Part shown: in pieces, positions 60,402-63,904 of the stretch
How the letters are laid out: each line of letters begins with the position of its first letter
Numbering within the stretch: position 1 is the first letter of the stretch
DNA from: Oscillospiraceae bacterium
Lineage (GTDB): Bacteria > Bacillota > Clostridia > Oscillospirales > CAG-272
Assembly: GCA_015065135.1 (NCBI GenBank)
Contig: SVQY01000008.1
Location: 1,264 to 65,263, forward strand
Length of the DNA stretch: 64,000 nucleotides
Reading direction: 5' to 3'
Translations under genes and position numbers: made by a program
The notes under the pieces: model-generated
What the model saw: only the letters and a program-made list of their open reading frames with translations
The model's database searches: none
Told to the model about the DNA's origin: nothing

Positions 60402-60701
60402 TTATTTTCCGAAATAATATCGCACGCCCTCGGCGCGCAGGCGACTCAGCAGCGCTTCATTCTGCGCCAGCGCAGGGTCTACCAGGGCTGCCAGCTCGGC
60501 TGTGCCGGAGAACGGCAGACGCTCCCTTGCACGGTCCAGCAGCTGCGGCAGATCATCGGCCTCGGTCCCCTCGCCGATGATCACGGTCAGCATCACCGCC
60601 ACCCGAGACAGCTGCGAGGTCACAAAAAGCCGTATCACGGCATAAAGCCCAAATACGGCAAAAACAGCAAGCAAGATTTCAGCAAGCAAAGAAAGATACA
60701 T
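60402..60701 (-). CDS. small membrane protein, unknown function
   Basis: ATG at 60701 after GAGGGGG; MYLSLLAEILLAVFAVFGLYAVIRLF TM helix; the longer ORF-track version overlaps metK. Confidence 0.45.
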   Translation of the reverse strand: MYLSLLAEILLAVFAVFGLYAVIRLFVTSQLSRVAVMLTVIIGEGTEADDLPQLLDRARERLPFSGTAELAALVDPALAQNEALLSRLRAEGVRYYFGK

Positions 60702-60759: not shown

Positions 60760-61947
60760 TCAGAGCAGCTCGGCGGCAAGAGCCTCGGCCATATCCCGCT
60801 TCTCCCACGGAATATCCAGGTCCTCGCGGCCCATATGTCCGTACGCCGCGATCTGGGCGTAGATGGGACGGCGCAGGCCAAAGCGCTCGATGATAGCGGC
60901 AGGGCGCAGGTCAAAGTGCTTCTGCACGGCTGCGGAGATCTTCTCCTCGTCCACCTTACCGGTGCCGAAGGTATCGATCATCACCGAAACGGGACGTGCC
61001 ACACCGATGGCATAGGCCACCTGCACCTCGCACTGATCCGCGAGTCCGGCCGCGACCACGTTCTTGGCGATATATCTGGCGGCATAGCAGGCAGAGCGGT
61101 CCACCTTGGTGGGATCCTTGCCCGAAAAAGCACCGCCGCCGTGACGGGCATAGCCGCCGTAGGTATCCACGATGATCTTTCTGCCCGTAAGACCGGTATC
61201 GCCGGCAGGGCCACCCACCACAAAGCGACCGGTGGGGTTGACAAAGATCTTGGTATCGGCATCCAGCAGCTCGGCGGGGATCACCACATTGATCACCTCG
61301 CGGATCATATCGGCGCGGATGGTCTCAACCGTCACGTCGGGGGCATGCTGGGTAGAAATGACAACGGTATCCACGCGGACGGGCTTGCCGTCCACATACT
61401 CCACCGTCACCTGGGTCTTGCCGTCGGGGCGAAGATAGGCAAAGGTGCCGTTTTTTCTCACCTCGGTGAGGCGCAGCGCCAGCTTGTGTGCCAGCGAAAT
61501 GGGCAGGGGCATCAGCTCGGGGGTCTCGTTGCAGGCATAGCCGAACATCATACCCTGATCACCCGCACCGGTGTCCAGCGCGTCGGTCATGGTTCCCTCC
61601 TTAGCCTCCAGCGCCTTATCAACGCCCATAGCAATGTCGGGAGACTGCTCGTGGATAGAGTTCAGCACGGCGCAGCTGTCGCAGTCAAAGCCGTACTTGG
61701 CGCGGTCGTAGCCGATCTCGCGCACCGTCTCGCGCACGATGGTGGGAATATCCACGTAGGCCTTGGTGGTGATCTCGCCCATCACGCAGACCATACCGGT
61801 GGTGCAGAAGGTCTCGCAGGCCACACGGGACATCGGGTCGGCCGCCAACATAGCGTCCAGAATAGAATCCGAGATCTTATCCGAGATCTTATCGGGATGA
61901 CCCTCGGTTACAGACTCCGAGGTAAACAGCATTTTGCGTTTTTTCAT
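60760..61947 (-). CDS. metK: S-adenosylmethionine synthase
   Basis: ATG at 61947 after AAGGAG; [22 protein letters not shown] and GGGAFSGKD motifs. Confidence 0.9.
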
Positions 61948-61966
61948 GATCTTCTCCTTTTTTGCG

Positions 61967-62108
61967 AATAAAACTCCCCTCGCGCCACACAGGACCGAGG
62001 GGAGCATAAAGCCAAGCAGCGCATCTCTCGGGATTTAGCACCTTTCCGCGTGCGGTAGGTTGCTGTAGGATCACAGGGCCTGTCCCTCCCCTACTCTTGA
62101 TGACTTAT
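61967..62108 (-). ncRNA. SAM-I (S-box) riboswitch with intrinsic terminator, leader of metK
   Basis: The minus strand reads ...TCATCAAGAGTAGGGGAGGGACAGGCCCTGTGATCCTACAGCAACC...GGTGCTAAATCCCGAGAG..., then terminator CTCCCCTCG...CGAGGGGAG TTTTATT (61967-62004). Confidence 0.85.
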
Positions 62109-62167: not shown

Positions 62168-63454
62168 TCAAAGCAGCCATTGGAAGGCAGCCAGGCCGCC
62201 GTAGGCAATGGCGGTCACGACGACACCGGCGATCAGCACGCCGATAAAGCAGGAAAGCAGCGCCTTCCAGAACTTCATATTGATCACCGCGGCGACCAGC
62301 GAGCCAGTCCAGGCACCGGTGACGGGCAGCGGCACCGCCACAAAGAGACACACACCCCAGAAGGAGTATTTTTCGATCTTGGCGCGGTTCTTTTCGGCCT
62401 TGGCAAGCAACCAACCGGCAAAGCGGTTAAAGAGCTTTACGCGGCATTTTTCCATCCAGGCAATGATCTTGGTGATAAAGAGCAGGATGAAGGGCACGGG
62501 GATCATATTGCCCAGCACGGCGAACAGAAAGCTCTGCCACCACGGCATCCCCAACGCCATGCCGAGTGGGATCGCGCCGCGCAGCTCGATGATGGGCAGC
62601 ATCGAGCAGATGATCACGCCCAGCTCGCGCCCCAGCTTATCCACAAGGAAGCTTTCAATAGCCGAAACAACGGTACTGAGCGAGAAGCCGCCCTCGTCCT
62701 TGACAAAGCTACCTCCTATGACCTTGAAGATCAGCACCGCAGCGCCGACGATCAGCGCAAGCGCTGCCAGGGTCACCCAAAGGCTGGTGAGCTTTTTCTT
62801 TTTCGGAGCCTCCGCAACGATCGGATTTTCGCACGCTTCGGTCTCGCTGCTCGTTGCGATCGCCGCGGCCTCGAGCTGCGGCTTTTCGCTGCCCGGCAGG
62901 ATGCGAAGCTTGCGCAGCGCACGGGAAAGCGGCTTATAGAGCAGCAGAACGCCGCCCACATTGAACATCGCCTTGAGGCTATTGAAGGGCAGCAGCAGCG
63001 CCGGGATCATACCTCGCACGTCTGCAATACTGACGTTCAGGAACAGAGGGGTGATCACCAGATTGGCCAGCAGCATCACCGCGACCATCAGGCAAGCGCC
63101 GGTGATCAGGCCAAGCACGGCACCCCAGAGCGTTTTTTTCCATTTATAGAACAGGGCTACGGTCACCGAAAAAGAAACCGATCCCAGAATGTTCATGATC
63201 AGACCGTATGCGCCGGTATCGCTGACCGTGATCAGCTCCAGCAAGGGCACCAGCACCGAAATGATCAGCGCCGCCAGCGGCCCCCAGAAGAGACCACAAA
63301 GAGCGATCACCGTATCCTTGACGTCCATCGTCAGCATCGGCGGCACCTTGATGCGGATCAAAAGCGTGGTGACAAAGGCCATCGCCATAAACATGGCGAC
63401 CATCACCATATAGCGGATCCGCTCGCTTTGTGTGCTTTTTCTTCTTGATTGCAT
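62168..63454 (-). CDS. fusion protein: ECF-transporter S component (RibU-like riboflavin binder) + COG2426/small-multidrug-export-like membrane domain
   Basis: ATG at 63454 after AAAGGAGAG. Residues 1-183 look like an ECF S-component; 184-221 form a Pro/Ala/Glu/Lys linker; residues ~275-428 contain LPIIELRGAIPLGMALGMPWW..., typical of PF06695-like proteins. No stop codon between the parts. Confidence 0.65.
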   Translation of the reverse strand: MQSRRKSTQSERIRYMVMVAMFMAMAFVTTLLIRIKVPPMLTMDVKDTVIALCGLFWGPLAALIISVLVPLLELITVSDTGAYGLIMNILGSVSFSVTVALFYKWKKTLWGAVLGLITGACLMVAVMLLANLVITPLFLNVSIADVRGMIPALLLPFNSLKAMFNVGGVLLLYKPLSRALRKLRILPGSEKPQLEAAAIATSSETEACENPIVAEAPKKKKLTSLWVTLAALALIVGAAVLIFKVIGGSFVKDEGGFSLSTVVSAIESFLVDKLGRELGVIICSMLPIIELRGAIPLGMALGMPWWQSFLFAVLGNMIPVPFILLFITKIIAWMEKCRVKLFNRFAGWLLAKAEKNRAKIEKYSFWGVCLFVAVPLPVTGAWTGSLVAAVINMKFWKALLSCFIGVLIAGVVVTAIAYGGLAAFQWLL

Positions 63455-63489
63455 AATACTCTCCTTTCTTGCAAGGAAAGAAGTACCGA

Positions 63490-63716
63490 TAAAAAAATTC
63501 CGACGCTTCCCTGCACGCGCAGAAAAGGGTCGGAGACGACAAAAACACCTTTGTCTTGTCACAAAAGCGGTACATCTTCTCTCATCCGGACTATATGCAA
63601 GGCAAACGCCTCGCGCAACCGTCGGTTCGGGAGTTTCACCCGATCGGCGTCGGTTTTTTTCACCAACGTTCGCAGACTTTACTGCCGGTATGGAATTACA
63701 CCAATCCCCGAAAATG
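63490..63716 (-). ncRNA. FMN riboswitch (RFN element) with terminator
   Basis: The minus strand reads TTCGGGGATTGGTGTAATTCCATACCGGCAGTAAAGTCTGCGA...GATCGGGTGAAACTCCCGAACCGACGGT...ATAGTCCGGATGAGAGAAG, then stem CCGACCCTTTT...GGAAGCGTCGG + AATTTTTTT (63491-63533). Confidence 0.85.
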
Positions 63717-63742
63717 ATATATTGAATTGATTGAATTGTAAA

Positions 63743-63766
63743 ATCCCCGCCGCCGCGAGGGCGACG
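63743..63766. repeat. copy of the 24-nt sequence ATCCCCGCCGCCGCGAGGGCGACG (partial duplicate of the tuf terminator)
   Basis: Identical 24-mer at 63841-63864, 98 bp away. Confidence 0.8.
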
Positions 63767-63835
63767 TACAGGGTCAGACAGCAAGAACACGATATTTGTT
63801 CTTCCTATCCTCAAAAAGTGCGAGCAAAGTTTATG

Positions 63836-63870
63836 GAAAGATCCCCGCCGCCGCGAGGGCGACGGGGATC
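63836..63870 (-). terminator. terminator after tuf
   Basis: Minus strand: GATCCCCGTCGCC-CTCGC-GGCGGCGGGGATC followed by TTTCC. Confidence 0.65.
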
Positions 63871-63904
63871 TTTGTTTATAAGATCAGTTAATTTCGTTCA
63901 GAAA

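Follow-up and report, generated by a model that had tools for sequence, protein, structure and literature searches.

The window analysed here, a 64-kb stretch of a contig from an Oscillospiraceae bacterium whose numbering is used throughout, carries on its minus strand a single gene in which a RibU-type S-component of the energy-coupling factor (ECF) transporters is joined in frame to a membrane domain of the PF06695/COG2426 family. In many uncultured Clostridia of gut and rumen, the two parts are encoded by separate genes, ribU followed by a PF06695 gene, in an operon under the control of a flavin mononucleotide (FMN) riboswitch, and the gene of the window is the fused version of this operon. 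FMN-dependent termination thereby controls one transcript for both activities, which are covalently joined here and encoded by two cistrons in most relatives. The reading favored, with somewhat better than even confidence, is that the RibU domain, a linker, a seventh transmembrane helix (TM7) and the PF06695 domain form an uptake unit for times of flavin scarcity that works with a shared ECF module. The link to flavin is a property of one clade and not of the PF06695 family as a whole.

The complete open reading frame (ORF) occupies 62168..63454, with an ATG at 63454 and 428 codons followed by a stop at 62170-62168; it contains no internal stop. From the N-terminus, the product comprises a RibU-type S-component domain with six transmembrane (TM) helices (residues 1-183; 62906..63454), assigned by PF12822, a PDB profile search and Foldseek; a cytoplasmic low-complexity linker with KKKK at its end (residues 184-221; 62792..62905); TM7, an AlphaFold2 (AF2) helix at residues 220-252 (62699..62797) that runs in-to-out, which fits the positive-inside pattern; and a PF06695 (Sm_multidrug_ex, DedA-superfamily) domain (residues 259-428; 62171..62680), assigned by Pfam and by alignment to stand-alone proteins. 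All of these features lie on the minus strand, and every coordinate in the original prediction, which had been made from the letters of the DNA alone, proved to be correct. The AlphaFold model has a mean predicted local distance difference test (pLDDT) score of 85.8, with values above 90 across the RibU domain. The linker described in that prediction is indeed predicted to be disordered, showing no secondary structure at a pLDDT of 46-59 and falling below 50 at residues 203-215. Its length differs among homologues, and the nine lysine and arginine residues over positions 177-221 fit a cytoplasmic location. In the NCBI records the fused protein is named only 'ECF transporter S component'.

Among S-components, profiles and the predicted model identify the N-terminal domain specifically as RibU, as had been suspected. 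PF12822 (ECF_trnsprt) matches residues 14-176 with 49.6 bits against a cut-off of 30.7, covering model positions 1-168 of 169 (Pfam). In a PDB profile search with the fused and split homologues, only three RibU sequences were matched (3p5n with E = 4.4e-24; 5kc0; 5kbw). Foldseek superimposed the model on Thermotoga maritima RibU with TM-scores of 0.90-0.91 and root-mean-square deviations of 1.7-1.9 A (0.91 and 1.7 A for 5kbw) and on Staphylococcus aureus RibU (3p5n) with a TM-score of 0.85, compared to 0.68 at most for ThiT, BioY, FolT, PanT and other S-components. The motif A20xxxA24 in TM1 is kept in the fused and split forms of both RibU subfamilies described below: A20 is present in 55 and A24 in 60 of the 61 TM7-type proteins, and all 17 six-TM-type proteins have A/G or A at these positions. 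AxxxA in TM1 is the surface by which group-II S-components dock on EcfT, and in group-II ECF systems ecfA/A'/T are normally not adjacent to the S-component gene. The window contains no ABC-ATPase pair, in agreement with the original prediction that energizing genes are missing nearby. Since the distance to ecf genes is normal for group II and the docking motif is conserved, these data do not indicate that the fused domain serves as an alternative partner for the S-component, one of the roles that had been proposed for it.

The C-terminal assignment was likewise confirmed by hidden Markov model, PF06695 matching residues 290-412 with 153.3 bits (cut-off 30.7) over the full model, positions 1-121 of 121 (Pfam). 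The domain can be aligned over its whole length to stand-alone PF06695 proteins of 164-170 amino acids, contains the re-entrant-loop motifs PIIELRGAIP and PLPVTGAWTGS and a basic central amphipathic region, and shows AF2 helix breaks at residues 286-289 and 374-379. In relatives of 37-72% identity, the invariant alignment columns are P37 E40 L41 R42 G43 and P125 L126 P127 T129 G130 W132 T133 G134. No solved structure was detectable for the domain by sequence search, and hmmscan did not detect PF09335 (DedA/VTT) in the fusion protein. The fold of the family is no longer an orphan: two in-silico studies group PF06695 with TMEM41B, VMP1 and DedA as the fourth family of the DedA superfamily, with a core formed by an inverted repeat of amphipathic helix, re-entrant loop and TM helix and a proposed function as an H+-coupled secondary transporter (bioRxiv 10.1101/2020.12.18.423352; PMC7818093). 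For the 'multidrug export' in the family name no experimental support was found, and Streptococcus mutans MucJ carries a predicted annotation only. Two PF06695 variants, P0129 and P0249, have an acidic insertion of about 60 residues in the central cytoplasmic connector.

Upstream of the ORF, the expected RFN element with terminator is present. An FMN riboswitch aptamer spans 63570..63719 (minus strand) and matches the full Rfam model RF00050 (positions 1-138) with 91 bits and E = 1.5e-19, at a gathering score of 66.2. It is followed at about 63491..63534 by an intrinsic terminator, the expression platform of an OFF switch, consisting of the stem TCCGAC...GTCGGA and then ATTTTTTT. In the minimum-free-energy fold of 63725..63440 the terminator hairpin stands directly before the U-run, and the leader fold is more stable than those of shuffled controls, with a z-score of -4.45. 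A ribosome-binding site, GAAAGGAGAG (GGAG; 63459..63468, minus strand, read from the sequence), lies 4 nt 5' of the ATG. This layout is the classic transcription-terminating OFF arrangement. No convincing sigma-70 promoter was found for the leader; the sole consensus match, at 63742-63714, was not credited, as transcription from it would begin inside aptamer P1. The region just upstream of the aptamer also contains a 32-nt direct repeat, 91% identical, at 63735-63766 and 63833-63864. It reflects the GC-rich terminator hairpin after tuf (in full at 63837-63873), of which a degenerate second copy precedes the aptamer.

The relationship of this gene to an operon became apparent from its relatives. 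Apart from the fusions, the close matches are proteins of about 240 amino acids, some named 'riboflavin transporter FmnP', in which linker and TM7 are already present. Every informative stand-alone RibU that was looked up (P0008, P0083, P0113, P0116 and P0120) has a separate PF06695 gene 12-72 nt downstream, encoding 167-171 amino acids, within the local order tuf, FMN riboswitch, ribU, PF06695, S-adenosylmethionine (SAM) riboswitch, metK, small ORF and recD2, to which the window is identical. Of the informative look-ups that started from RibU, 6 of 6 led to a PF06695 domain downstream. When the window's PF06695 domain was compared to one genome per GTDB species, at least 586 relatives were found, and the best 80 loci were examined; these are 55-80% identical and derive entirely from uncultured Clostridia, the named records being mostly Oscillospiraceae. 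A ribU gene adjoins PF06695 in 72 of the 80 species; it precedes PF06695 in the same orientation in 71 (70 split pairs and a single fusion) and is convergent to it in 1. An FMN riboswitch is found at 69 of these 72 loci, as counted with Rfam on 40 loci and with a covariance model built from 35 Rfam-verified aptamers; at one of the remaining three, L067, a contig end cuts the locus. Across 74 split loci from the species scan and the look-ups, ribU and PF06695 are separated by a median of 37 nt; the gap measures 80 nt or less in 66, with overlaps of 1-4 nt in 4. Such gaps leave little room for a separate PF06695 promoter and indicate that in most species PF06695 is co-transcribed with ribU, so that both are shut off when FMN is plentiful. 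Within the loci scanned, neither S-components for other vitamins nor other riboswitch classes were seen with PF06695. The riboswitches upstream are all of the FMN class, the one for SAM is the switch of metK, and a single purine riboswitch has no relation to the pair. Genes for ApbE or flavinylation did not appear beside the loci examined. At L090 (1244-2212), the ribU ORF upstream of PF06695 is divided between two adjacent frames (1244-1855 and 1856-2212), which reflects either a pseudogene or a sequencing frameshift.

A search for the fusion architecture among 5.8 billion proteins, grouped into 90%-identity clusters, recovered the same two-domain fusion in six clusters: P0001 (100% identical to the window protein), P0002 (80%), P0003 (64%), P0004 (58%), and P0006 and P0007 (43 and 41%), the last two being a short-linker form of 383 amino acids. 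P0002, from an NCBI Oscillospiraceae/Ruminococcaceae metagenome-assembled genome, was read on 24 contigs and P0006 likewise on 24, with JGI, ENA and NCBI among the sources. Fusion is nonetheless rare: it was found in 1 of the 80 species genomes sampled, and none of the top 150 representatives of 50%-identity clusters was fused (4,855 matches among 1.84 billion proteins). In the short-linker lineage (P0006; L004-L006, 7149-8792), a 547-amino-acid ORF, which shares 4 nt with the fused gene at its stop, precedes the SAM riboswitch and metK. A conserved third operon gene was considered and rejected, as the ORF of L004 and the one downstream in L175 have no Pfam matches and are mutually unrelated.

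The S-components upstream of PF06695 form two groups, both riboswitch-controlled. The TM7-bearing subfamily A scores about 155-320 bits in a profile search and always has the C-terminal helix; the canonical six-TM subfamily, found at 17 loci, scores 57-94 bits and ends in a tail of 1-17 residues. The extra TM helix noticed in the fusion is therefore real, but it is not specific to fusions: TM7 is present in all stand-alone subfamily-A relatives of about 240 amino acids, which rules out a fusion-specific spacer. TM7 belongs to the RibU lineage. On a tree of the 170-residue PF06695 domain, a simple neighbor-joining tree of limited resolution, the six-TM type is scattered, requiring at least 14 state changes compared to 19-23 for shuffled labels; L029 (TM7 type), for example, is sister to L031 (six-TM type). 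This distribution suggests that the ribU subtype was exchanged repeatedly while the arrangement of riboswitch, ribU and PF06695 stayed. The fusions of the window and P0002 (L001) nest among split forms at distances of 0.20-0.28, while the short-linker fusion L004 is about 0.45-0.5 distant from everything, which indicates at least two fusion events. Members of the first lineage share a 'CENP' linker motif down to 58% identity, a divergence which implies that the fusion has been maintained.

The distribution of charges offers a simple topological model. Lysine and arginine residues number 4 at the N-terminus, 9 in the linker after TM6, 1 after TM7, 9 in the central amphipathic region of PF06695 and 0 at the C-terminus. 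This pattern fits the positive-inside rule with the N-terminus inside, TM1-6, the linker inside and TM7 running from inside to outside, and it fits a PF06695 core with both ends outside the cell and the central connector inside. Independent support for an outside N-terminus of the core comes from the distant PF06695 proteins P0144, P0217 and P0229, in which a signal-peptide or lipobox leader and a polar extracytoplasmic stretch precede the core. In the fusion, TM7 appears to take the role of this leader. An in-frame fusion to a six-TM RibU would leave PF06695 inverted in the membrane, consistent with the observation that the fusions seen involve TM7-type RibUs only.

Based on these data, a simple model would have both activities switched on at low FMN. 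High FMN should stabilize the aptamer and let the terminator form, switching off the RibU and PF06695 activities together. The RibU part would bind riboflavin outside the cell and deliver it through a shared EcfAA'T module encoded elsewhere, as suggested by group-II behavior and the retained AxxxA motif; that the RibU domain captures riboflavin and uses such a module can be proposed with good confidence. The PF06695 part would represent a transporter-like accessory module that is needed in this clade when flavin is scarce, most likely contributing an H+-coupled step that aids flavin acquisition or salvage next to RibU. That it is needed specifically under flavin limitation, beside RibU and in this clade, is close to an even call that leans slightly in favor, and fold-based proposals for the superfamily suggest that it probably carries out H+-coupled translocation. 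It would represent neither a general flavin function of the whole family nor a replacement for the ECF module. The OFF-type riboswitch fits uptake or salvage and argues against export of surplus flavin; of the export or salvage role envisaged in the original prediction, salvage therefore agrees with the regulation and export does not.

The main rival account, unlikely though deserving real weight, treats PF06695 as a neutral hitch-hiker. It would perform a flavin-unrelated, DedA-like housekeeping function, for instance the translocation of lipids or lipid carriers or an envelope homeostasis coupled to H+, and lie by ribU through ancient synteny, and the fusions would be tolerated stop-codon-loss accidents between adjacent membrane-protein genes whose termini by chance lie on the same side. 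Several observations weigh against the flavin-scarcity model and in part speak for this account. All linked loci occupy a single syntenic slot (tuf through SAM riboswitch-metK-recD2), so the counts are not independent and reflect shared ancestry as much as selection. The adjacency of PF06695 to the SAM riboswitch and metK is at least as conserved as that of ribU to PF06695, and 8 of the 80 species, accounting for approximately three loss events, keep PF06695 without ribU or an FMN riboswitch; in six of these eight it still lies directly upstream of the SAM riboswitch and metK. Even where ribU is present, control is not uniform: L050 and L092, with TM7-type ribU and PF06695, lack an FMN riboswitch even in an unfiltered covariance-model search, and at L079 (2986-4684) a ribU with its own FMN riboswitch is adjacent and convergent to PF06695, and the two are not co-transcribed. 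The predicted template modeling (pTM) scores of 0.60 for the window protein with its long linker and 0.63 for the short-linker fusion yield no confident domain-domain interface, although the domains are individually confident, and a fixed arrangement of the two was thus not obtained from AlphaFold. The invariant motifs of the family are unchanged in the ribU-linked clade, and literature searches on PF06695 returned no experimental function for any member.

A further limit on the flavin link comes from a distant branch of the family, which was scanned in metagenomes with P0243, a protein about 39-41% identical to the window domain, as the query; the resulting 80 loci (L095-L174; 369 kb) are 39-53% identical to P0243. 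A covariance-model search at E <= 1 found an FMN riboswitch at none of the 80 loci, as did Rfam on 20 of them, and an S-component-like neighbor was seen at 1 of the 80, L150, which is cut by a contig end. The association of COG2426 with flavin regulons stood for the branch that includes the window, and these counts rule out a family-wide association with FMN riboswitches or ribU; with the link confined to a clade, the larger claim that the fusion provides a functional lead for the whole domain family falls. Instead, the recurrent neighbors in the distant branch are a class I/II aminotransferase (13/80) and a Polysacc_synt/MOP-type flippase-like protein (11/80), with examples at L170 728-1912 and L102 1521-2927; recD2 follows in 5 loci. 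The flippase-like neighbor, which again accords with a housekeeping function, may point to a DedA-like role in the envelope or with lipid carriers.

Other features are difficult to reconcile with neutral synteny. PF06695 lies behind an FMN-dependent terminator in 69 species, and a housekeeping gene would hardly be expected to be shut off at plentiful FMN. The ribU subtype was replaced repeatedly with the arrangement left in place, two independent fusions arose, of which one was retained down to 58% identity, and L175 keeps the riboswitch-ribU-PF06695 unit intact with a different downstream gene. These points argue for the flavin-scarcity unit outlined above.

A stronger version of the functional link would make PF06695 a dedicated physical partner of RibU in this clade, either for H+-coupled import without or alongside the ECF ATPase or for a coupled second translocation step for flavin or a flavin analogue. 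This reading is doubtful; if true, it would provide the first biochemical function of a PF06695 protein, and an ECF S-component would for the first time have a partner from outside the ECF system. Still less likely is an ECF-independent importer driven by the proton-motive force, in which the DedA-like domain would replace EcfT and EcfAA' for toppling and substrate release. The window without ECF genes, the 1:1 stoichiometry and proximity implied by a covalent fusion, the proposed H+ coupling of DedA-type cores and the way in which TM7 brings the RibU C-terminus to the PF06695 N-terminus would all suit such a protein. However, group-II S-components as a rule have no ECF genes nearby, the TM1 docking motif is conserved in all forms, and PF06695 also accompanies six-TM RibUs, which have no TM7, observations which disfavor it; in addition, no interface is predicted with confidence and PF06695 exists also without ribU. 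Finally, the notion that the fusion is an artefact of one assembly, in which a frameshift from sequencing or assembly or the loss of a stop codon merged two neighboring genes, for which the prevalence of split versions with gaps of 10-70 nt and the rarity of fusion could be cited, carries a negligible probability and is excluded by the recurrence of the same in-frame fusion in six clusters on dozens of independent contigs from several sources, with junction and linker conserved as protein across 58-82% identity.

The order of PF06695, SAM riboswitch, metK and recD2 downstream is shared with most of the related loci scanned. Directly following the ORF, a SAM (S-box) riboswitch (62018-62106, minus strand; 61.9 bits) controls metK (60760-62007, minus strand). 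Between metK and recD2, most related loci contain a small ORF of about 99-101 amino acids with no Pfam match, located here at about 60402-60700 (minus strand) and at 8794-9093 in L001. In the clade without ribU and FMN riboswitch (L034, L049, L054, L058, L066 and L070), genes for a calcineurin-like metallophosphoesterase and a GH20 glycosidase abut PF06695 at distances of 0-3 nt, as exemplified by L054 422-2997.

The riboswitch-ribU part of this arrangement is textbook knowledge, whereas for the pairing of RibU with PF06695 no prior description was found. Targeted full-text literature searches returned none, and neither an operon nor a fusion of the two is contained in a 2015 survey of FMN-riboswitch-linked transporters (PMC4418817), in PMC9973259, or in the two studies on the DedA superfamily (bioRxiv 10.1101/2020.12.18.423352; PMC7818093). 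The PF06695/COG2426 family is large and extends to archaea and plant chloroplasts as well as bacteria. No function has been assigned to it by experiment, and its DedA-superfamily relatives, including TMEM41B, VMP1 and undecaprenyl-phosphate translocases, currently attract broad interest. For one branch of PF06695, a riboswitch-defined regulon together with a natural fusion provides a testable lead in vitamin B2 uptake, although the flavin link is partly confounded by synteny and a transfer of annotation to the entire family is unwarranted. For the ECF field, the arrangement raises the question of whether an S-component can have a conserved non-ECF membrane partner. More generally, the hosts are uncultured Clostridia that abound in gut and rumen, a setting in which cross-feeding is shaped by the acquisition of B vitamins.

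The RibUs of Bacillus subtilis and Lactococcus lactis are of canonical size with six TM helices, and canonical RibUs are not known to have a PF06695 partner. The window protein resembles RibU (FmnP/YpaA; 3P5N, 5KBW) in its PF12822 match, its six-helix fold (TM-score 0.85-0.91), the AxxxA motif, an upstream OFF-type FMN riboswitch and the lack of adjacent ecf genes. It differs in TM7, which puts the C-terminus of its RibU part outside, and in a PF06695 domain that is fused here and encoded downstream in most relatives; in comparison, the S. aureus (3P5N) and T. maritima (5KBW) proteins stay within the canonical 180-206 amino acids. A precedent for flavin S-components with accessory or alternative membrane partners, revealed by gene neighborhood, is found in Listeria monocytogenes, where alternative ECF subunits direct flavin trafficking, RibU/EcfT for import and EetB/FmnA for export (PMC9973259). 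In contrast to the window, the Listeria partners are ECF-S-like and ECF-T-like rather than members of the DedA superfamily, and the system serves to export FAD for flavinylation outside the cytosol and is not under repression by a riboswitch (PMC9973259). DedA proteins, such as Escherichia coli YqjA/YghB and the undecaprenyl-phosphate translocases, share the superfamily core, in which two re-entrant loops face each other, and a translocation mechanism proposed to be coupled to H+ (PMC9876793), but their homology to PF06695 is distant, their motifs differ, and the ribU-linked loci show no lipid-carrier context. The C-terminal domain resembles stand-alone PF06695 proteins in its size, a full Pfam match, the invariant loop motifs and a predicted helix pattern that fits the inverted repeat. 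Typical members, however, either stand alone or have a signal or anchor leader of their own, and show no flavin context, whereas in the window the leader role would fall to TM7 of RibU and expression is tied to the FMN riboswitch.

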